DNA of 64,000 nucleotides from a virus, in the IMG/VR virus record IMGVR_UViG_3300041964_000082, positions 1 through 64,000 of that record. One strand, written 5' to 3'. The notes under the pieces are model-generated. The model searched no databases and had not been told where the DNA came from. It saw only the letters and a program-made list of their open reading frames with translations. A program made the position numbers and the translations under genes. Shown piece after piece: positions 2,007 to 54,236 of the stretch (positions within the stretch are counted from its first letter, which is position 1; every line of letters starts with the position of its first letter).

Positions 2007-2705
2007 ATGGCTAAAACTCCTTTTTTCACAGGGAAGGGCGTAGAACTGTGGCTAGCTGCGCTTCCTGATGGTATTGAAACCGAGCCGATCGAATTTACGG
2101 CAACGGCATCCGCAGCAGCAAAAGGGGCAACCACAGTCACCATTACGCCCGCACTGCCTGCCGATAGCTTCGTGCCCAAAGACAGCTATATCAATGCCAT
2201 CAGCGCATTGGGTTATGAGGTTCTGGTGCAGCTTAATGCTGATGCTGAGGCTGGAGATACGACGCTAACGACCAAGCCACTACCGGAAGCGATCGTAGCG
2301 GGTTCGACGGTCGAATATCCGCTCAAGCTCCGCGCTCGTACCACTGCCGATCTCGATCGCTCTGGTAACCGAGTCACCACGGTTACATTTGATGACGATG
2401 CCTACGAAAGCGGTCGCACCACGACGATTTCGATCGGGCTGAACATGCAAGGCAACTGGTCGCCTCTCGATGCAGGCTACGCCACCTGCTGAACATTGGT
2501 TTAACGAGGGCTATCAGCAGCTTTATTTCTGGATGCAGTTGCCCAATCCACGTCCGACTGTTTACAGCAAGGGCAAGGTTTACAAGGGTACAGGGTCAAT
2601 CACCTCAATGCCGCTATCTGCTCCGGCTGATGGCATTATCACCGGAATATTGACGCTGCCTTTAACGGCAAGCCGACGATGGTTAACCCAACGCCGATCG
2701 TCTAA
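2007..2705 (+). CDS. Major tail (tube) protein, frameshifted
   Basis: ORFs 2007-2492 and 2470-2796 join into a beta-rich protein ending YKGTGSITSMPLSAPADGIITG, typical of tail-tube C-termini; lies upstream of chaperones and tape measure. Confidence 0.7.
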
Positions 2706-2905
2706 GGATGATTCGCTCATTGCAGTCGCGCGGTGTCTTTTGCTGTGGCTGTACGGTGCAGCCCGATGGTGTCCAGGTCGCGATCTATATGACTGATGGC
2801 AGTCAAACAGGAAATCGCGACTGGTAGACCTCGACACAAACGATCGCTACACCGTGCAGCTTCCTCGCATCACAGAAAGCCCAACTTACAAAATTCTCCT
2901 TCCCT

Positions 2906-3679
2906 ATGCCCCTGCCCTACAAAACGCTTAAGCCCGTTGAAACCGTCGAGTGGGCGGGTTCACAATTCGGAAGCGAGGCAGCTTGACCGTAGCCGAAGAA
3001 CACGCCATGCTGGGTTAGAACAACTCATCGAGAGGAATCCATAAAATCTGACTCCGTTGCAGTCAGATCTAGTGCTAAAACAGCGACGTGATCACTATCT
3101 TGATTCAGTCCAGACTTGATCGCGACTGGGATCTCTGCAAAAACACAGCTTCTGTTTGGCCTGTAGAATGGATGGAGAGACGGTAGAGATCTGAACCAGA
3201 CATGGAATGCTAGATGATCTGTTTGACTTCTTCATGGCTGAACAGCGGCGACACAAGTCGATCGAGGATTAGAGGCGGAACCGCAGTCGGCTAAAAAAAA
3301 GAAATAAATTGGGCAGAAACCTACTGGCGACTGAAGTTGGCATACCCAGTGAGAACGCTTTGGTGAGGAGAGGTTTGGGGATTGTTCGCTGATTGAGGTT
3401 GAAGACGCACTAAATGCACTCGATCGCAGAGATTTTGAAGCTGCCAACCGTGCCGCCATTCCGATCGCCTTCTGTTGGGCAAATGATGCTGCTAGCAAGG
3501 GAGTTAAAGAATTGATCAGACTGTTAATCCCTTACGCCAGCGTTCTCTACAGCGAAGAAGCCCGATCGATCATCGATCCAAAGGTTGCTCAAATTTGGCT
3601 GGATTTAGCCAATGAACAACGCATTCCGAGTTGGGCGATCGCTGAAATCGATATGAAACTGATTCGAGCCGCAGTATGA
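2906..3679 (+). CDS. Tail assembly chaperones G/GT with a probable programmed -1 frameshift (additional indels present)
   Basis: Position between tail tube and tape measure; A AAA AAG at 3295-3301 just before TAA 3305-3307; the -1 frame reads EINWAETYWRLKLAYP. Confidence 0.55.
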
Positions 3680-4049
3680 GCAGCTATAAACTCAGCTTAA
3701 ACATCACCGAGATCAACAAGCGGCAGAGCAGGCATTTGTTGACACTGCCTTTCAGTTTGGCGCTGCCATGACTCGCGTAATCTCAGAACCTCGATCGTGG
3801 GCAGGATGGGATGACACACGAGACATCGTTGACACTGGACAACTGCGATCGAGTCAGCAGATGGTCTTTAATAATCCTTTTGAAGCTGCCTACTCATGGC
3901 CTACAGAGTACGCCGCCTACGTTCACGAAGGCTACACACTGAGAAACGGCGAACGAGTTGCAGGGACGACCCTGGACAGTATAGCGCAGCAGGAATTCGA
4001 CATCCAAGAGGCGTATGCTGCGGCGTATCAGAAGTACATAAATGCGTAG
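3676..4049 (+). CDS. HK97 gp10-like tail completion/neck protein (frameshifted 5' end)
   Basis: DIVDTGQLRSS and EYAAYVHEG motifs characteristic of the family. Confidence 0.7.
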
Positions 4050-4138
4050 CCTCTTGTTTTCATCAAAACTTCACAGCCAAAGATTGCAGAATTTTATCTG
4101 GCGACAAGCATACTAAAGGGGTCGATTCCATCTTCCTC

Positions 4139-4609
4139 ATGAAAGCTCAAGCATCTGCGATCGCTGCCTTGGTTCTTTTGGCTGGGTGCGCTACTCAGTC
4201 CAAAGATCTGAGTGGACAGGTATTCTTTCCTAGCGCTCCGCCTGGATACGATGGACAGCCCTGCACCGCACCAACAGGTTATGACGATATCGAAGCGGGG
4301 TTACAGGTTGTCGTCAAAAATGCGGCGGGCGAAATCGTAGGCAGTGGAGCGCTTCAGGAAAGCACGGCAACAGCGAAAACTTTGAGTGAAGAGCAGCAAA
4401 GAGGATTGCAAGATCCACAGGTGGCAGCACATCTCGCAGGCAGAGTACCAATTACCTGTACCTTTCCTTTTGAGGTTGAAGGCATACCAAAATCAGACTT
4501 TTACACAGTTCAGGTAGGCAGTGGCGATCGCGGTTCTCTAACTTTTAACTTTGACGAACTTGAGCAGCAAGATTGGAAGGTTGTCTTAACGCTAGGTGAT
4601 GCGCCCTAG
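4139..4609 (+). CDS. Lipoprotein moron
   Basis: MKAQASAIAALVLLAGC: signal peptide with LAGC lipobox; inserted within the tail operon. Confidence 0.7.
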   Translation: MKAQASAIAALVLLAGCATQSKDLSGQVFFPSAPPGYDGQPCTAPTGYDDIEAGLQVVVKNAAGEIVGSGALQESTATAKTLSEEQQRGLQDPQVAAHLAGRVPITCTFPFEVEGIPKSDFYTVQVGSGDRGSLTFNFDELEQQDWKVVLTLGDAP

Positions 4610-4624
4610 CTCGATCGCTTTTAG

Positions 4625-4635
4625 GTAGGAATTCT
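4625..4635 (+). promoter_or_regulatory. Candidate late-gene promoter motif GTAGGAATTCT (identical copies at 10529-10539 and 13679-13689)
   Basis: Identical 11-mer about 24-27 nt upstream of three structural-gene starts. Confidence 0.55.
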
Positions 4636-4661
4636 AGCCACGAAGTCTTTAAGCAAAGCTC

Positions 4662-7600
4662 GTGGCAAGTCTCGGAACCCTCAATCTTGTTTTATCCGCA
4701 GACTCTAGTCCGCTACGCAAAGAGCTAAGCGGAGTCACACGCGAAGCCCAATTTGCCGCCAAAGCAATTCAAGGCATCTCCACAGGCGAAAGCTTTAGCG
4801 GTGCAGGGCTTCAGGTTCTAAGCTCGACCATCATTGGCCTAGTTGACGATACCCATCGGCTAGGCAATGAATTTAAGCTCACCACTTCACTAGTTGAAAA
4901 CCTAAAAAACGGGATAGGTGGTCTTGCCGCACTCCCGATTCCTGATTTTCAGGCAGAAGCTTTATCCTCACTGGGGCTAGGGCAGGTTTCTAGCAGTCTG
5001 GAAGTCCTCAGCCTTGCCTCTACAGGATTAAAGACACTGGCGATCGCTCAAGGGATCGCTCAAGGTGCGATTGTAGCTTTTAGCGGTGCGCTCGAAACAC
5101 TGAGAGTAAACCTCAAGTTAGTCAGCTACTTCTTTGAGGATATTGGCAATTCACTCAGGGCAGCAGGGGCAATGTTTGCGCCCCTGGTTGGCTTGATGGA
5201 TGGCGCTGGTCGCGCATTCGATCGACTGTCGGATGGGGCGGGCGACGTTAAAGGCAGAATGGATTCTGCCTGGGTTTCGGTTGGCAGCTTTGGGCAACAA
5301 CTCCAGAAATATATCGGAGCCGCCGAAAAATTCCAGTCGGCAATGGAAGATCTGGGCGAAGCTGCCATCCTATTTAATCAGTGGAAGAACCTTTCTGATA
5401 TCGTTGACGGTTTTTTTGGCGGGCTTCAAGAGAATTTTGACGCCGCTCGCAACTTTGAAACGCTAAATAATCGACTTGAACTTACCTCTACATCGGCGGG
5501 TGGAGCGAGAGAGGATCTAGCCTTCCTTCGGCAAACAGCAAAAGATTTAGGGCTAGACTTCAAGGCGGTTAGTGAGGGTTTCGCCCAATTCTCAACAGCA
5601 GCAAAACTAGCGGGCTACGACGCTAATCAGACCAAGCAAGTCTTCACAGACGTATCGCAAGCCGCCTCTGTGATGGGTCTGTCGGCTGAAGAGACCTCTG
5701 GAGTATTTCTAGCACTGCGGCAAAGTTTATCAGGTGGAACAGTTCAGCTAGAAGAATTAAACCAATTAGCTGAGCGTGTACCAGGTGCATTTGCTGCTGC
5801 TGCCCAAGCGCTAGGGGTAACGACAGGCGAGGTTAAAGGCTTGATTTCGGCGGGCAATGTTTCCTCAGCCGACTTTATTCCTAAATTTGCTGCTGCTCTT
5901 GCTTCTGTCACCGAGTCCGGCGTTACTGATGCGATGGGTTCTGGCACAGCAGCGGTCAATCGTTTTAATAACGCGCTGGGCGAAGTGTCGGTTTCACTTG
6001 GTAAAGATCTGCTGTCATTCGGTACGCCTGCAATCAATGCCTTTGCCAAAGTGCTTGAATTTGGCGCAGAAAATGCTGAATTGTTTGGAACTGCTGTCGA
6101 TGCATTCCTCGTTGCAGCAGCAATACGAGGTGCGGGTGCAGTAGGCAAGATGGGCACCGTGATTGCTAGCTTCGTCGCGCAAGGCGGCAAAGGCTCGATC
6201 GCAATGCAACTATTTGGGCAGCAAATCTCGCTTACGACTGCACAGATCGGAAACTGGCAGCGCAGGCTGGCTTAACTTTTGCTGCCCTAACTGTTTTCTA
6301 CAAAGTACTCGATCGCTTCAAGGATGGTGGCAGTGAAACCCAAAAGGCGGTCGACAGCCTCAACAATTCCTTGGTTGAACTGAATCAAGCTGCTGGCAAT
6401 ACTCCGTCACTTGCCGCGATCATCCCTGAAAATCCACCTTCAACTGATTTTCTCGATTCATTTGTCCACAAACTGAATGATGCCAACGCCGCAATCAATC
6501 GCTTGTTTGGACTGGATGAAGGCTTTGGCAGGCTGACCACCAATGCTGATAAACAGCTCAACGATCAGCTGATCAAGATCGGAGAATTCGGTCAAAAAGC
6601 ACAGGAGATTTTAGGACAATCGCTCAGCCTGCGTGAACAAAACAAAGGCGGTGACGGAGCGATCAACGAACTGAAGCAGCTAGACGCGATGCTTGCCCAA
6701 ATTGAGCAGCGCAAAGTCAACGTTGACCCTGCCAATGAGGACGCGATCGCTCAAATCCGACAAGAAGAGGAAGCGCTACTAAAGCGACGAGCAGACGCCC
6801 AAAAAGAGGTGCAAGCAACCCAAAGCGCCATCAACAACGCGCTGACGCAGGCACGGCAAGAGCTTCAGAATCTTGATCCTGCTCAGATGGGGCAAGAGGG
6901 ATACGATCGCGCTAAGGAGCAGATCGAGACTCAGATCACGCTGCTAGAGCGAGAGAAAACAGAACTCGATAAGGTTGCCAACGCTGCCACACAAACTGCT
7001 CAAGTTACGGCTGACGCTTTCAGCAAGTCGAATCACGAGATCGAAGCGGGCTACCAGCAGCGACAGGCAGCGATCGCAGAAGCGCTGGCAAGTGGAGAGA
7101 TCGACGAAGAGCAATCGAGAGAACGATCGCTTCAGGCTGAGCAAGAATACTTGCAGCAAAAGCTGGAACTAAACCGATCCCAGCTTGAAAAACTGCGGGC
7201 AGAACTAGAGAAAAACGCCAAGCTGCGGGCGATCGATCCTGCCGCTGCCACACTGACGGCAGATCAGGAAAAGCAGTACGCAGAACAGGTAAAGCAACTT
7301 GAACTGGAGACGGCGCAGACCCGCATTCAGATTGCCCAGAACACCCGCGAGGGCAAGCAGCAGGCACTAGAGGATGAGCTAAAAGGCATCGAGCAAGCCA
7401 ACAGCGAAGCAGAAGCCGCAGTCTCTAAAAGTCAGAACGATCGCACTGCCGCCATTCGTCAGCAGCAGCTAGCAGGTACGGTGGGAGAGGAGGAAGCCGC
7501 CGCTAAGATTGCCGAAATTCAGCGCGACTCGATCGCTGAGCAAATCGACCTTGAACGCGACAAGCTCGCTCAGCTTGCAGAACTTGAAGCCGCTGGCACA

Positions 7601-16383: not shown

Positions 16384-17131
16384 ATGAGCGCAACCCCAAC
16401 CCTAACCGCCGCTTGCCCGATCGATCGCCTCAGCAATGTCGATCTGCTGTGGGTGCAACAGCAACTCCTAAGAGGCGGCTACCTCGATCGCCCCACAGAT
16501 GCAGACGGCTTGATCGGCAACCGCACTCGCACCGCCTTTGCTAATTTCAAGCGTGACGCCTCTTTGTCCGATCCTGAGCTAATTGGCGGCACGTCGATCA
16601 CACTAGTTGCAGCAGCTTGACGCGCCTCACAAGGTCAGTGAGCAACAGCAGGCGTTGGCGACCAAAGCCAATCCAATCGCAGGTACTCGATCGGGTAAGC
16701 GGGCAATTCTTCCAGTAGTCGGTGAAGTCTACGAAAACGATGGATCGCTGATGGCGCTTACCTGACCTGGGGTGAAATGCTGCGCGGCTTTAGCCGATGC
16801 CGATCGGGTCTGCCACTTTTGGGAGCGAGGAGCAGCTTGTAAAAAACATGCTGGCAACTGCGGCAGCATACCGATGATCCGGCAGAAGTTCGGCAGTCCG
16901 ATCGCCATCAACTCTGCCTACAGACCATACACCTTAGACATTGGAGCATCACGATCGCAGCACAAATATGGTCGCGCTTTGGACTTGCGCCCGCTCAATG
17001 GCGATTTTAAACGGTTGCTGGAAGTTGTCAAAAGTACCTCAGCCATCAAGGGGATCGGGCTAGCTCAGCCAAGCTTTTTGCACGTCGATATCAGGCCAGA
17101 AAAGAAGCGCACTATTTTTCGCTATGCGTAG
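16384..17131 (+). CDS. Endolysin: peptidoglycan-binding domain plus peptidase M15 (frameshifted)
   Basis: VQQQL...ADGLIGNRTRTAF PG-binding motif; INSAYR, SQHKYGRALD and FLHVD Zn-peptidase motifs. Confidence 0.85.
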
Positions 17132-17467: not shown

Positions 17468-17515
17468 GCGGCGATCGGGTGCAAAGCAGGCAAACACACA
17501 GCAAAAGGGTTGAAA

Positions 17516-18004
17516 ATGAAAGCACTAAGCGATCGTCAGAATACAGCGGGCTTCACTTTGATCGAAGTTTTGATAACGATAATCATTATCGGTATCCTCA
17601 GCTCTCTCGCTTTGCCAGCGTACTTATCACAGGCTGCAAAAGCCAAACAGACAGAAGCGAAGGGGTATGTGAGTGCTGTCAATCGCGCTCAGCAAGCCTA
17701 CAGAATCGAAAAGTCTACATTTGCTGGGGAATGGACAGACCTAGAAATTGGCATTCCTGCCGAAACTCAAGACTATACCTACACTCTGAGCGCTGCGAGC
17801 GAAACCACAACAACGATCGCTGCCGAATCAGAAGCGCCTGAACTGCGCGACTACTCAGGCGGCGTGGTAGTCCTGCAAGACAGCGGGCAAACGTCCGTAG
17901 CCGCCTGTCAGACAACCAAAACAGGTGGGAGCGTGATTCTGCCGACGCTCGATCGATCGATTGGGGCAGGATGTGAGGGCAACGATGTGGAGATCATGCG
18001 GTAA
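17516..18004 (+). CDS. Type IV pilin (cyanobacterial pilin G/H-like family)
   Basis: Class III signal G|FTLIE, hydrophobic helix, QAAKAKQTEAK...VNRAQQAY motif, C-terminal Cys pair. Confidence 0.92.
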   Translation: MKALSDRQNTAGFTLIEVLITIIIIGILSSLALPAYLSQAAKAKQTEAKGYVSAVNRAQQAYRIEKSTFAGEWTDLEIGIPAETQDYTYTLSAASETTTTIAAESEAPELRDYSGGVVVLQDSGQTSVAACQTTKTGGSVILPTLDRSIGAGCEGNDVEIMR

Positions 18005-18216
18005 GCAATGGCTAACTTTTCTCCACGGCAAGGACATCCGATCGAAGTCTCCCGGCAACCGCTGTTTGTTCTGTCGATCGCGTGTCTGCGTCTCGCCTGG
18101 GTCGTATTGCGAAGATTGGCTAGCGTACATGATACGCGGCAACGAAGTGGGTATGGTTCACAATCGCTGCTTCTATGGCGGCGGCGAACCAAACAAAGAG
18201 AAGGCAAGGTAAACAG

Positions 18217-18579
18217 GTGGAACAACTGCTAGCCCATTTGTGCGGAGACTGGATGACCCAAAATAATTGGATTGCCCTGAACAAACGCACCTCTCCATCA
18301 TGGCTACCCGTCCTGGTACATGGCATGTTCTACGGTCTGTCATTTGTGGTCACAAGCCTTGCTTTTGATTCGCCCGAAATGCGATCGCTCATGCCTTTAG
18401 CCTTTATCGTCAGCACTCATATTCTGGTTGATCGATTCAATGTAGCCTCGCTATGGGTGAGAGCCTACAACTGGCAATGGGACGGCGATCGCCCCAACGT
18501 GCCTAACTTCGTCCTCTTGTGCTGCGACCAATCAATCCATTTGTGGCTAAATGCTATTGCTTTGCACTATCTTTCTTGA
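18217..18579 (+). CDS. DUF3307-like membrane protein
   Basis: AHLCGDW..Q, H...Y, THILVD and DQSIH conserved motifs. Confidence 0.8.
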   Translation: MEQLLAHLCGDWMTQNNWIALNKRTSPSWLPVLVHGMFYGLSFVVTSLAFDSPEMRSLMPLAFIVSTHILVDRFNVASLWVRAYNWQWDGDRPNVPNFVLLCCDQSIHLWLNAIALHYLS

Positions 18580-19230
18580 TTCGTCTATTTTCTCTCATCA
18601 AAGGAGTTGTCAATGCTTTTTCTATCGACCATCCACACTTAAAGCGCCTGCTGATAGTAGTAGGTCTAAAGCCCAGCCTTCTTTCCCACTCTCTTACACA
18701 AAGCGTCTCACCTTGAAAAGTTATCCATCGTGTCGTTCGTCTGTTTGCCGCTTGCTCTATCGGAGTAGCCCATCGACAGTTGTCTTTTGAGTAGCCACAA
18801 TTGTTGTCAATCCGATCAATCGAATGCTGTCTTGTTGGAGGTTCGCCCATATCCTCCAAAAACGCCTCGAAACTGTTGCGCATCGATCACAGACTGTAAT
18901 TCCTTTTGCCCCGTAATTTGCATAATTTGAGTCTTTGCAATCACAATGACACCGAGAAATCATTGCAGACCACGATCTAAAAGCGCCAGACAGATTATGT
19001 CCTCGCGTGTGTCCATGCGTGGAGAATCTTTCAGCAGCGGCAACTGCTGCAAGATCTTTCTTCAAACAACCACAAGATCTTGTGTGTCCTGTTGTAACCT
19101 TATGCTTGCTAAATTTCTTTTGTGTTCCGCAGTCACACAGGCATTCAAGTTGCGCTCTTCCGCCCAATATCTCTTTGACAACGGGTCAAACGACCAAACC
19201 GATCGCCCGGATCACTGTTATTCTTGTCAT
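18554..19230 (-). CDS. HNH endonuclease 1 (frameshifted)
   Basis: CLCDCG, SCGC, WSAMISRC, NYGAKGITVC, HSIDRIDNNCGYSKDNCRWAT..Q..N. Confidence 0.88.
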
Positions 19231-19313
19231 AGCCCTCTCGCAAGTCGTGTTGTGAAATGGGTCAGCCGTTGCCGAATGTTGGAAGCATTTTGCAGCGGCG
19301 TTTCTATTATTTT
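19225..19313 (+). ncRNA. Candidate cis-antisense RNA over the HNH1 start codon and leader
   Basis: Conserved with 20766-20853; hairpin with G-U pairs on the + strand followed by a U-rich tail. Confidence 0.5.
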
Positions 19314-19334
19314 AACAAATCTAAGAAATGCAGT

Positions 19335-19391
19335 CGATCAATCAATTCACCTGTGGCTGAATGCTCTTGCTTTGCACTACCTGATCATCTA
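19335..19391 (+). repeat. Orphan second copy of the DUF3307 3' end
   Basis: 41/48 nt identical to 18525-18572; encodes DQSIHLWLNALALHYL. Confidence 0.9.
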
Positions 19392-19404
19392 GGAGGCGAT
19401 CGCC

Positions 19405-19689
19405 ATGCCAGATACACCCCTTGAACGCCTCGCAGAATTAGAAGCCGCTGTAGCAAAGCTAGAGGTAAGCGATCGCCTGCAAGTGAAGCAAATTCGGCTG
19501 ATCCAAAAGCTCAACTCTGCTCTGTTTGGGTGCATAGCGATCGGGCTTCTGCTCAGCCAGCAAACCATCCAAAGCCCTGAAAATAGACAGATGTTAGAAC
19601 GCATTGCGATCGGCGTAATAGCAGCAGGTGCGTCTGGTTTAGGCTTAAGTGGGTTTCTGGAAACGAAAGAATCGGAGTCAACTGAATGA
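19405..19689 (+). CDS. Holin-like small membrane protein
   Basis: N-terminal coiled coil, two hydrophobic segments, charged tail, GGAGG RBS; lysis region. Confidence 0.45.
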   Translation: MPDTPLERLAELEAAVAKLEVSDRLQVKQIRLIQKLNSALFGCIAIGLLLSQQTIQSPENRQMLERIAIGVIAAGASGLGLSGFLETKESESTE

Positions 19690-19946
19690 CTTTCCACAAA
19701 TCCAGTAATTACGTCGAAATAACCTGCCCTGCTTGTGACGAGCAAGGAAATCGGCTTATTCCAGTTGAATCAGTTGCCTTCAGAGTTCATATCAGCATCG
19801 CGATCGACCCGAAAATGAGCCAGAGTCAAAAGACTTTCAGCCACTATTGCAAGAGTTTTATGAAAAGCTAAATCAACATTGCATAGAATTTAACGATCGA
19901 TACACCGCTTTAATCCAAGGTTAATTACCCAAGATCGATCGCCCTC

Positions 19947-20069
19947 ATGCCCGCAACCCAGCAACCCAGTGCCCGCGAACTCTTGAGAGCGATCGAGCAG
20001 AACGAATTGCGGCTCCACTATCAGCCGATCGTTTCTCTGCAAGCTCCAGCCTTGCCTGTGAGCGGCTAC
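19947..20069 (+). pseudogene. Orphaned EAL-domain N-terminus
   Basis: LLRAIEQNELRLHYQPIVSL...VSGY breaks off just before the EAL motif; the rest of the 302-aa ORF is the antisense shadow of HNH2. Confidence 0.8.
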
Positions 20070-20077
20070 AAATCAAT

Positions 20078-20771
20078 TTATCCGGCCTCTCTAGCTGCTT
20101 TACTGCCTTTAGCTGATACTCCCTTTCTGTTCATACTTGGTGTTGTAAAAGCTTGCTCTACACTCCATCCTCTCTTTAGCCGACTGGATAACAGTGACGC
20201 GGGCAAACACACTTTGTCGCTCCACTCCTGCAAGCACAAAGACTCACCTTTATATTCAACAATTGTGTTGTTAGATCTGTTTCTTTGTTGTTGCTTGCGC
20301 GTTGCCCATCGACAATTTTCTTTTGAATACCCTAAATCGTTGTTTCTACGATCGAGAGTATGTTTATTTGTCGAAGGCTCACCCATATCTCAAGAAAGCT
20401 TCAAAGCTTTTACGCCATCGATCGCAAACTGTAATGCCTCTGCCACCATAGTTCTCGTAATAAGTATTCTTTGGATTGTGGCAACGTTGAATCATGTTCG
20501 TCCAAATTCGGTACAGTCTTGTTTTACGTCCACATGGGGTATGACCATGCTTTGTTATACGCTGCCGAGTAACATCAGACTGAAGACACCCGCACGATTG
20601 AGTGTGTCCAGTACGCAGCGCTTGCAGCAGAACTTTGCGCTTTTTGCCGCAATCACAAAAACATTCAAAGACTCGATACGTTCTACCAGAAGAAATCCTA
20701 TGTCTGGCAACTTCCTGAACGATTGTCAGCCGACCAAATCGATCGCCCGGATTTACTGTTATTGTTGTCAT
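20078..20771 (-). CDS. HNH endonuclease 2 (frameshifted), paralogue of HNH1
   Basis: GDRFGRLT, CFCDCG, SCGC, NYGGRGITVCDRW, HTLDRRNNDLGYSKENCRWAT. Confidence 0.9.
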
Positions 20772-20853
20772 AGCCCTCTTGCAAGTCGTGTTGTTAGATG
20801 GGTTAGCCGTTGTGAGGTGTTGGAAGCACCCGCAGCGGCGTTTCTATTATTTT
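20766..20853 (+). ncRNA. Candidate cis-antisense RNA over the HNH2 start codon and leader
   Basis: Hairpin GCCGTTGTGAGGTGTTGGAAGCACCCGCAGCGGC plus T-rich tail; covaries with the copy at 19265-19299. Confidence 0.5.
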
Positions 20854-20911
20854 AGCTTAAATAATATTGATAGCTTGCTAATTACTTGTCGCTCAACAAA
20901 GCCTAATTATT

Positions 20912-21653
20912 GTGAACATACTAGACGCGCTAGAAAAAAAACAACTTCTGTTGTACTATCAACCAATTGTTGATCTGCAACAGCACAGCGCCCCAGTAGT
21001 GGGGTATGAAGCGCTTTTACGCTGTAAATGCCCCGATCGAGGTTTTCTACTTCCTAAAGACTTCCTACCCAGCATTACCCAAGCAAAAATAACTGATTTC
21101 AAGTGGCAAACGCCTTTATTTAACTGGGTATTCACTGAAGCATGTAGAACAGCAGACAACGCTTGAAGACGGGCTGTACTTGAGCGTAAACGTCGAACCT
21201 ATGCAGTTTCTTGAAGCTGGGTTTGTAGCACGAGTCAAGCAAACAATAGAACAGCTAAACCTTAAAGGCCGAATATGTTTTGAGATCACGGAACACTCGA
21301 TCGCGAGTCGTGATTTGCTAGTTCTACAGCAAGAACTTACATTATTAACAGAATCAGCAAAAGTTGCTCTAGATGATGTTTGGACAGGCAATGCTTCTTT
21401 GTGGAGAATTAGCGAACTGTATGGGTTGATTGACCTCTTAAAAATCGATCGCGTTTTCATGCCAAAAGACTCGTTTGATCGCAAGTCGATTGCTATCTTT
21501 AGGTGTTTCGTCACACTAGCTGACGCTCTGGACTTGCAGACAGTAGCAGAGGGGATTGAAACACAGCAACAGGTTGATTTCTGTCGATCGCTGGGCGTAC
21601 GCTTTGCTCAGGGGTTCTTTTTCGGGAAGGCGCAGGCAGAGTTGGCGCAATGA
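20912..21653 (+). CDS. EAL-domain c-di-GMP phosphodiesterase (one frameshift near 21165)
   Basis: YQPIV, EALLR, SVN, EITE, LDDVWTG, LKID, VAEGIE and QGFFF motifs. Confidence 0.9.
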
Positions 21654-52849: not shown

Positions 52850-52990
52850 TTACGACGGCTTTTTAGGGAGTCGCAACCTACGGATCAACTCTCTCAGTAC
52901 GTCAGACTTCGTTCTGCAGACTGCCTCGCAATAAGCCTCTAGCAATGCAAACTCTTCATCATTCAACCGGAAAAACACACTTTTACTCAT
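52850..52990 (-). CDS. 46-aa ribbon-helix-helix (CopG-like) protein inside the IS
   Basis: MSKSVFFRLNDEEFALLEAYC...RTKSDVLRELIRRL. Confidence 0.75.
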   Translation of the reverse strand: MSKSVFFRLNDEEFALLEAYCEAVCRTKSDVLRELIRRLRLPKKPS

Positions 52991-53024
52991 GGCAAGGTAT
53001 ATCGTTATGATATACAATAGTAGC

Positions 53025-54236
53025 ATGAAACTTCGCTACCGCTATCGTCTTTATCCCAATTCCGAGCAGGTTAAACTGCTCTCTAAGCTGTTTGGCTGCA
53101 CTCGTGTAGTTTGGAACGACGCTTTAGCTTTTTGCCAGCAGACGTGGAAGGAGGGAATCAAATACCCTGGTGCTAGCGAGTTGATGAAGCAGTTCATCAC
53201 ACAAGCGAAAGCCAATCCTTTGCGCTGCTGGTTAAGCGAGGTTTCTAACATCCCATTGCAACAGTCGATTCGAGATCTAGACGCTGCCTTTCGCAACTTC
53301 TGGAACTCGATCAAAGGCAGCCGCAAGGGGCAGAAAGTAAAGCCACCCAGGTTTAAGAAACGGCATTCTAGACAGACTGCCAGATTCACCACGGGTGGAT
53401 TCAGCATCAAGGCTGAGAAGGTCTACTTTGCCAAGATTGGCAAGGTCAGAACGGTATGGAGTAGACCTTTGCCATCTACTCCATCCTCCGCAACTGTAAT
53501 CAAGGATGCAGCCGGACGCTACTTTGTCAGCTTTGTCTGCGAAGTCGAGGTTGCTACACTGTCAACTTGCCCTAACGCGGTCGGCATAGACTTGGGCATC
53601 CAGACCTTTGCCGCCCTGAGCACGGGTGAGAAGATTGATGCCCCCAAGCCGCTCAAAGCTGCACTCAAAAAGCTCAAACGATTACAACAGAGCCTCAGCC
53701 GCAAGGTGAAAGGATCAAAACGTAGAGAGCAAGCAAAGTTAGCCGTAGCGAAGCTTCACGCCTTCATTGCTGATGCCCGCACCGATTTCCTGCACAAACT
53801 CTCAACTCGACTGATTCGCGAGAACCAAGCAATCAGTTTAGAAGACCTAAATGTGTCAGGGATGGTCAAGAACCGCAAACTCGCAAGAGCGATTAGCGAT
53901 CTAGGGTGGAGAACCTTTCGAGAGATGTTGGTCGCCAAAGGTGGGATGTATGGCCGTGAAGTCAGCATCATCAACCGTTGGGAGCCGACATCGCAAGCCT
54001 GCTCAAACTGTGGGCATCGTGGCGGCAAACTCAATTTGTCTGTCCGATTGTGGGAGTGCCTGTATTGCGGTGTAAGTCATGACCGAGACATCAACGCTGC
54101 CATAAACATCAAAGTCGCGGGAGGACATTCCGAGACTCAAAACGGACGTGGAGAGACTGTCAGACTGCCATTGGCAGCAGGTTTCAGTGAAGCGTCAACC
54201 CATCAATTAGGAGAGCAGCTATGCCTGGACTTCTAG
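53025..54236 (+). CDS. tnpB: RNA-guided endonuclease TnpB
   Basis: YRYRLYP HTH; RuvC GIDLG, LEDL, HDRDINAA; CSNC/CLYC zinc finger. Confidence 0.97.
   Translation: MKLRYRYRLYPNSEQVKLLSKLFGCTRVVWNDALAFCQQTWKEGIKYPGASELMKQFITQAKANPLRCWLSEVSNIPLQQSIRDLDAAFRNFWNSIKGSRKGQKVKPPRFKKRHSRQTARFTTGGFSIKAEKVYFAKIGKVRTVWSRPLPSTPSSATVIKDAAGRYFVSFVCEVEVATLSTCPNAVGIDLGIQTFAALSTGEKIDAPKPLKAALKKLKRLQQSLSRKVKGSKRREQAKLAVAKLHAFIADARTDFLHKLSTRLIRENQAISLEDLNVSGMVKNRKLARAISDLGWRTFREMLVAKGGMYGREVSIINRWEPTSQACSNCGHRGGKLNLSVRLWECLYCGVSHDRDINAAINIKVAGGHSETQNGRGETVRLPLAAGFSEASTHQLGEQLCLDF

Follow-up and report, generated by a model that had tools for sequence, protein, structure and literature searches.

A nuclease gene that lies between two copies of the 3′ end of a phage DUF3307 gene probably belongs to a free-standing homing element (cassette 1), the mobile unit of which would be the nuclease gene together with a foreign, respelled version of the final 19 codons of the gene it targets. 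The cassette lies in the window, the stretch of 64,000 nucleotides analysed here, taken from the start of an IMG/VR virus record of 94.7 kb (its first 64 kb). An earlier note on this DNA had proposed an intron-less invasion in which the nuclease brings its own repair patch. The ends of the uninterrupted and the patch-bearing alleles, the chimeric make-up of the target gene and the recurrence of the layout in other phages all agree with that proposal.

Two diverged copies of one gene end flank the nuclease gene

The features at cassette 1 are as follows, in positions of the window.

18175-18579, plus strand: DUF3307 gene (Pfam PF11750), intact and chimeric, with its last 19 codons of the patch type
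18520-18579, plus strand: left copy, the cassette-borne replacement gene end (CC DQSIHLWLNAIALHYL S, stop); repeat core 18525-18572; GC3 0.375
18554-19230, minus strand: free-standing nuclease gene, with a Zn-ribbon module, a probable PacI-like beta-beta-alpha-Me core and a C-terminal helix-turn-helix (HTH)
19231-19314, no strand assigned: conserved cassette leader, common to cassette 2 up to TTATTTTA
19315-19329, no strand assigned: 15-nt filler from the cassette end to the orphan, with no match to cassette 2 or to the DUF3307 alleles
19330-19392, plus strand: right copy, the orphaned native gene end (AV DQSIHLWLNALALHYL II, stop TAG); repeat core 19335-19382
19391-19689, plus strand: GGAGG ribosome binding site (RBS) and 94-aa gene, the backbone to the right of the insertion, with about 95% nucleotide identity to phage G001 from the TAG onward

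A repeat search of the window identified a direct repeat of 48 nt, 18525-18572 versus 19335-19382, with 85% identity (41/48). When the 1.5 kb on the left was compared with the 1.5 kb on the right by BLASTN, this pair was the sole match (E = 5e-11), so that the 41/48 match first noticed by inspection was recovered independently by both methods. Read in codon register (18526-18573 versus 19336-19383), each copy encodes 16 residues with the shared peptide DQSIHLWLNA[I/L]ALHYL, in which only the I/L position differs. There are eight nucleotide differences in this register, and seven of them are synonymous, which confirms the synonymous bias noted earlier. In simulations with eight random substitutions, taking either copy as the start and kappa from 1 to 4, seven or more synonymous changes arose in a fraction of 0 to 0.001 of the trials, of which 40,000 were run for each setting. 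A synonymous excess of this kind is the signature of two alleles that were each once functional. Other phages that carry this nuclease family show the synonymous bias again.

Homology to the uninterrupted alleles described below extends the duplicated segment slightly beyond the nucleotide repeat, to 18520-18579 on the left and 19330-19392 on the right. The longer left segment reads CC...I...S followed by a stop, and the right one AV...L...II followed by a stop. Ten of the first 30 nt past the junction differ between the patch and the native end. GC3 is 0.375 in the left copy and 0.37-0.42 in the nuclease genes, 0.60 in the body of the DUF3307 gene and 0.50 in the right copy, and at six of the seven synonymous differences it is the right copy that uses the codon commoner in this phage.

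The last eight codons and the stop of the nuclease gene overlap the left copy on the opposite strand, the minus-strand frame ending at 18554, within the copy, as had been noted. The DUF3307 gene is nevertheless whole, in keeping with the earlier suggestion that the left copy keeps it intact: the reading frame runs from 18175 to 18579, and its product matches PF11750 with E 3.5e-9 and 37.2 bits, above the gathering cutoff of 23. About the first 13 codons of this frame (18175-18214) share homology with the beginning of a 119-aa gene of G001 (locus L085) that is otherwise unrelated. The true start of the DUF3307 gene may be a GVG-type GTG at 18217 or the ATG at 18253.

The right copy had been taken for the original gene end on the ground that it runs into the RBS of the next gene. 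Its stop codon, TAG at 19390-19392, does overlap the GGAGG of the 94-aa gene, which starts with ATG at 19405. As evidence of an original end this overlap is weak on its own, because G001 has the same TAG/GGAGG arrangement without the orphan.

Uninterrupted alleles end like the right copy

The 90%-identity protein cluster of the DUF3307 product contains five sequences, P0001 (the window), P0122, P0123, P0124 and P0125. P0122 (121 aa) is encoded on a 35.8-kb JGI contig, and P0125 (109 aa) comes from JGI, Logan and ENA. The comparison of empty with filled alleles was made on proteins only. The two uninterrupted proteins, P0122 and P0125, end ..NFVLL-AV-DQSIHLWLNALALHYL-II, identical in 20/20 residues to the peptide encoded by 19330-19389, and they agree with the orphan at every position that separates the two copies. 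P0001, P0123 and P0124 end ..NFVLL-CC-DQSIHLWLNAIALHYL-S, which is the left copy. As P0122 and P0125 end like the right copy, the right copy is the native end of the gene and the left copy came with the cassette. The composition of the two copies agrees with this. This was the arrangement proposed in the earlier note, and the check suggested there, whether empty-site alleles carry the left or the right end, came out for the right when run on these proteins. P0122 and P0125 are moreover alleles that were never invaded, because pop-out between the repeats could not restore the residues AV at the edge of the segment.

The body of the window DUF3307 protein is one residue off P0122 and five off P0123, and its end is that of P0123. 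The patch-type end is present on two different DUF3307 bodies, and the window gene is a chimera of a native-type body and a patch-type end. As the body is near P0122 but the end is that of P0123, the crossover from body to patch is placed between 18445 and 18519. Such a chimeric pattern is as expected of break repair with a short conversion tract. Thus, at the protein level, this one site has both the presence/absence polymorphism and the chimeric flanks that mark a free-standing HEG.

The layout is also that of a self-patching element. On one side of the nuclease gene is the full-length target gene, on the other a stranded fragment of the same gene end; the stranded fragment is the one found in uninterrupted alleles (for cassette 2, in P0127), and the diverged end is the one on the gene. 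The insertion point of cassette 1 is at a DQxxH motif, which is kept in a 35%-identical homologue, and insertion at a conserved coding motif was likewise found at the EAL motif for cassette 2 and at a P-loop in locus L005. Searches for relatives of the DUF3307 gene in IMG/VR, JGI metagenome contigs and GTDB genome contigs returned none. BLASTN with 17500-19900 gave no match in 50,697 phage records, and an exact 34-nt pattern comprising the orphan and the RBS was not found in metagenome contigs.

A second cassette at a gene start

A paralogous nuclease gene lies a short distance to the right, beside an EAL gene.

19947-20069, plus strand: cassette 2 orphan, the native first 41 codons of an EAL gene, up to ..PVSGY directly ahead of the EAL motif; GC3 0.68
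20078-20854, minus strand: cassette 2, with the paralogous nuclease gene, conserved leader and hairpin; 2-nt gap relative to cassette 1 near 20388
20912-21653, plus strand: EAL gene to the right of cassette 2 (Pfam EAL); GC3 0.38-0.44; 1-nt indel near 21155

The cassette 2 orphan is 98% identical to the N-terminus of an uninterrupted EAL protein, P0127 (256 aa). The EAL gene to the right of the cassette has 64-68% amino acid identity with P0127, with the divergence spread over its whole length, and its GC3 is as low as that of the cassette; the two copies of the gene start share only 47% amino acid identity. Cassette 2 behaves like cassette 1 in this arrangement, with the start of a gene in place of its end.

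The same layout occurs in other phages

Translated left and right flanks were compared at 102 IMG/VR loci carrying relatives of the nuclease. Four further phage lineages were found to have the same layout, and most loci had no such duplication. The cases are listed by locus.

L005/L006: dNMP kinase gene start, interrupted within the P-loop; nearly all shared codons respelled
L009: last 9 codons of a gene for an 868-aa product; 8 codons and the stop respelled with no amino acid change
L010: first 7 codons of the gene that follows, in fusion with the nuclease frame
L118/L119: last 26 nrdD codons duplicated; the copies are 77% identical in amino acids and flank a HEG with the same Zn modules

The relatives of the L009 target gene (59-74% amino acid identity) are all without the nuclease, and are too diverged to assign the native copy in L009. 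One of these relatives (L092 2665-2737, also L091) repeats its last 8 codons in respelled form, 14 nt past the stop and just ahead of the RBS of the next gene. This second copy may be the scar of a lost cassette. In L118, a jumbo-phage contig, a 232-aa gene with two Zn modules and a different C-terminal domain lies between nrdD and nrdG (2061-4901). The L005 phage also carries a ThyX gene with a LAGLIDADG-type insert, probably an intein (44-2254); with the dNMP kinase case in the same phage, several homing elements thus occur in one genome.

A further member of the nuclease family, of 414 aa with four Zn modules, is encoded in G001 between a 60-aa gene and a pilin gene (L086, 1303-2547, minus strand). 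The window is empty at the corresponding site (17468-17515), and there is no duplication beside the G001 nuclease. When the G001 pilin gene is compared with that of the window, its 5′ half is about 65-70% identical and its 3′ half about 95%. The divergence of the 5′ half beside the nuclease looks like co-conversion in classic intronless homing.

The nuclease and its probable relation to PacI

The nuclease of cassette 1 had been described as an HNH nuclease, and this holds at the level of PHROG families: its pieces match phrog_374 and phrog_3377 (both 'HNH endonuclease') at consecutive profile positions, with E values from 1e-21 to 4e-35. It does not hold in the canonical sense, since Pfam and NCBIfam gave no match to an HNH model, or to any other, and the general-base His is replaced by Arg. 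Among 38 aligned relatives, a Cys-rich Zn module, a core of conserved motifs and a C-terminal helix-turn-helix can be recognised. The motifs of the core are W..M..RC, YGGRGI.VC.RW, SFEAFLEDMG and [DE]R.DN.GNYEP.NCRWAT..EQ..N. At the position of the general-base His of HNH enzymes there is a nearly invariant Arg, and a His four residues upstream is not conserved, so that the canonical histidine general base (the first H of HNH) is absent.

The AlphaFold model of the nuclease has a pLDDT of 89.7. Foldseek found no match to it in the PDB at E ≤ 0.001, and a sequence search of the PDB with the nuclease returned nothing significant. In VIA-align the top match was PacI, at a moderate level (Z 6.0, rmsd 2.3, 76 residues, 21% identity). 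PacI was also one of three weak hits in a profile search of PDB sequences (E 0.79, which is not significant alone), and this match aligns the core motif of the nuclease with PacI VDRSDSFEGYSPQN. The sequence and the model together indicate that the nuclease is likely to be a PacI-like beta-beta-alpha-Me enzyme and a member of the HNH superfamily. We call it PacI-like, and not canonical HNH, because of the Arg at the general-base position and the lack of a Pfam or NCBIfam HNH match.

PacI itself was reportedly described by Shen et al. in 2010 as having no His at the usual general-base position. In this the phage nuclease resembles it, and the motif D-R-x-D-x(3)-G-Y-x-P-x-N is common to the two (PDB 3m7k / 3ldy). 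PacI is, however, a small dimeric restriction enzyme, whereas proteins of the phage family have, besides the core, one to four Zn-ribbon modules and an HTH at the C-terminus.

In the window the nuclease frame is split into three pieces by three 1-nt homopolymer indels. An intact protein, P0002 (225 aa; JGI, Logan, ENA), is identical to the window nuclease residue for residue apart from these indels, which are AA to A, CC to CCC and GG to G, all in short runs. The breaks come without any substitutions, and for this reason we read them as probable sequencing errors. Decay of the nuclease gene had been considered as an explanation, and was dropped once the intact and identical P0002 was found. 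If the frame breaks were real, the copy in the window would be dead. The tail of P0002 (..KKDSAKQ) is encoded antisense to the left copy, which argues that the junction of nuclease and patch is present in other assemblies too.

Indels also occur in a peptidase gene, in the nuclease gene of cassette 2 (the 2-nt gap) and in the EAL gene, and the record is probably error-bearing in this stretch. The peptidase gene (within 16384-17131) has four 1-nt indels relative to its intact G001 orthologue. As such indels are likely to be sequencing errors, it would be wrong to take the broken genes in this stretch for pseudogenes.

Leader, hairpin and filler

At the end of each cassette is a conserved plus-strand hairpin, with GUUUCUAUUAUUUUA after it (19256-19314 and 20797-20854). 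In cassette 1 the stable hairpin of the leader occupies 19265-19299 and is followed by a U-rich tail. The two hairpins fold with energies of -25.1 and -28.9 kcal/mol (z -4.7 and -5.1). Their inner stems differ, with AAUG/CAUU in one cassette and GGUG/CACC in the other. The minus strand of the region folds much more weakly. The hairpin looks like an intrinsic terminator for plus-strand transcripts and lies antisense to the leader of the nuclease gene. The junction of cassette and orphan falls within a promoter-like minus-strand site (19337-19309).

Proposed pathway and alternative origins

We propose that the nuclease would cut uninterrupted alleles near the LL|AV-DQSIH codons, ahead of DQxxH, a site suggested by the point at which homology ends. 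The break would be repaired from a cassette-bearing genome. On one side the body of the gene would pair with that of the donor; on the other, the native end of the recipient would pair with the orphan of the donor and become the new orphan. The patch and the nuclease gene would be copied in from the donor between them. As the patch differs from the native site at 10/30 nt, the new allele would escape cutting in its turn, and the copied-in patch would keep DUF3307 functional. The divergence of patch and native end would also reduce pop-out by recombination between the copies.

The same outcome could have arisen as the scar of a single repair event, in which a donor nuclease gene lying downstream of DUF3307 was copied once, by homology-directed repair on one side and illegitimate end-joining on the other. 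The duplication would then be accidental, and patch and orphan would have no role in further spread. Such an origin would accommodate the 15 nt of unexplained filler between cassette and orphan, the intergenic position of the G001 relative, which has no duplication and is adjoined only by a diverged pilin 5′ half, and the EAL gene at cassette 2, which looks donor-derived as a whole and not just at its start. We nonetheless think it unlikely. The patch-type end is found on two gene-body haplotypes, and at least four further phage lineages that carry this nuclease family have the layout too. In addition, the structure once formed offers homology to either side of the cut, as shown for the WHO elements of yeast (PMC7282813).

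Two tandem DUF3307 genes might alternatively have flanked the nuclease gene, the second having been reduced to its last 20 codons. Paralogues under selection would likewise differ mostly at synonymous sites, and the bias between the copies speaks for such an origin. The uninterrupted alleles, however, are single genes with the orphan-type end on a window-type body. The fragment is, further, in all the cases found here exactly the segment repeated beside the nuclease gene, at 3′ and 5′ ends alike; decay would not leave exactly that segment, and we therefore reject this origin as very improbable. Least credible of all is a target-site duplication of the transposase type that has since diverged, or a chance resemblance: the copies are indeed direct repeats bracketing an insert, but copies that start identical, with the orphan then drifting randomly, give seven of eight synonymous differences in at most 0.001 of trials, those at cassette 2 share only 47% amino acid identity, no terminal inverted repeats are reported at the cassette ends, and chance is excluded by the E value of 5e-11. 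The marks of a transposon, an initially identical short duplication with terminal inverted repeats and a transposase, were not found.

The homing element proposed here might have a broader form. Tentatively, and with less assurance than we attach to cassette 1 itself, we suggest that a widespread nuclease family without a Pfam model, with Zn-ribbon, PacI-like core and HTH, could habitually spread as a nuclease gene joined to a respelled gene end, with the hairpin as a working part. If so, the family would be a phage counterpart of the yeast WHO elements, active at the 5′ as well as the 3′ ends of genes. It would continually swap the termini of conserved phage genes for foreign alleles, and the hairpin would insulate the stranded fragment or the nuclease leader.

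Comparison with known elements

Read in this way, the element is the phage version of a kind already known, from which it differs in its nuclease and in having 5′-end forms beside 3′-end forms. The closest parallels are the WHO elements at the yeast FBA1 gene, whose mechanism has been modelled and for which allele-specific cleavage has been shown (WHO6; Coughlan et al. 2020, eLife, PMC7282813). There, too, a nuclease gene is flanked by a full-length target gene with a foreign, resistant 3′ end and by a stranded fragment made from the former 3′ end of the recipient. The target gene is chimeric, the unit in WHO consists of the nuclease and a gene end that confers resistance, and the stranded fragment serves in WHO as a homology arm. 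WHO nucleases differ in being derived from intein/LAGLIDADG proteins, in acting in eukaryote meiosis and in building tandem clusters. In the phage the nuclease is probably of the PacI-like beta-beta-alpha-Me type and is encoded on the opposite strand, and the sister cassette replaces a 5′ end.

Similar hybrids of genes with mobile reading frames (mORFs) occur in fungal mitochondria, in atp6 of Allomyces macrogynus and in atp6, atp9, cox2 and nad3 of Glomus (PMC3630166), and partial duplications of cob and atp6 are also described from fungal mitochondria (PMC6279837). In these cases a C-terminus has been inserted together with an endonuclease reading frame, and the native C-terminus is left downstream; this native copy agrees with close relatives, and it is the inserted one that is diverged. 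Unlike the phage cassettes, the mORF elements are organellar, encode LAGLIDADG or GIY-YIG enzymes, often as in-frame fusions with the host gene, and are described only for 3′ ends. The nuclease of cassette 1 is not of the LAGLIDADG, GIY-YIG or intein-derived kinds. By analogy, cassette 1 appears to work like the WHO and mORF elements; as its nuclease matches the PHROG HNH families and probably has a PacI-like fold, it is not their homologue.

Intronless homing by a free-standing phage endonuclease, SegF of T4, was reportedly described by Belle et al. in 2002, a paper cited in PMC8351571. Like SegF and its relatives, cassette 1 has a free-standing nuclease gene beside its target. Spread by break repair with co-conversion of the flanks would be another shared trait, and the G001 nuclease by the pilin gene looks like this classic form. 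In the classic cases the insertion is intergenic and no piece of a gene is duplicated. PMC10448857 places phage HEGs at exchange (recombination) boundaries, and a word search within it found no mention of target-gene fragments flanking a nuclease gene. In the literature searched, no phage case of a self-patching nuclease with a gene end was found.

The cassette shows how a HEG can invade a coding sequence without an intron or intein while leaving the host gene unharmed. Filled alleles, empty alleles and an intact nuclease sequence are all present in public data, and allele-specific cleavage and homing are therefore directly testable. If elements of this kind are general in phages, they would explain small orphan gene fragments beside nuclease genes, sharply diverged gene termini and chimeric alleles, and some of the spurious 'split gene' calls in phage annotation. 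The analysis also flags a common nuclease family that Pfam misses.

Genomic setting

Genes in the window include those for a tape measure protein, a family A DNA polymerase and methylases, and a TnpB gene (OrfB_IS605 / Cas12f-like) at 52989-54236. GCGATCGC, which we take to be the HIP1 palindrome of cyanobacteria, occurs in 77 copies, or 1.2 per kb, and on that account the host of the phage is taken to be a cyanobacterium.

The insertion site is in an accessory stretch with a G+C content of 0.40-0.47, against 0.52-0.58 around it. Homology to G001, the closest phage found, stops near 18214 on the left and resumes exactly at the TAG at 19390 on the right, which suggests that the whole interval from 18214 to 19390 is a replaced module relative to G001. 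G001 was considered as an example of the empty site and was rejected, as its interval carries a 35%-identical DUF3307 gene and other genes. This difference in gene content argues that the region is mosaic for reasons other than cassette 1 as well.
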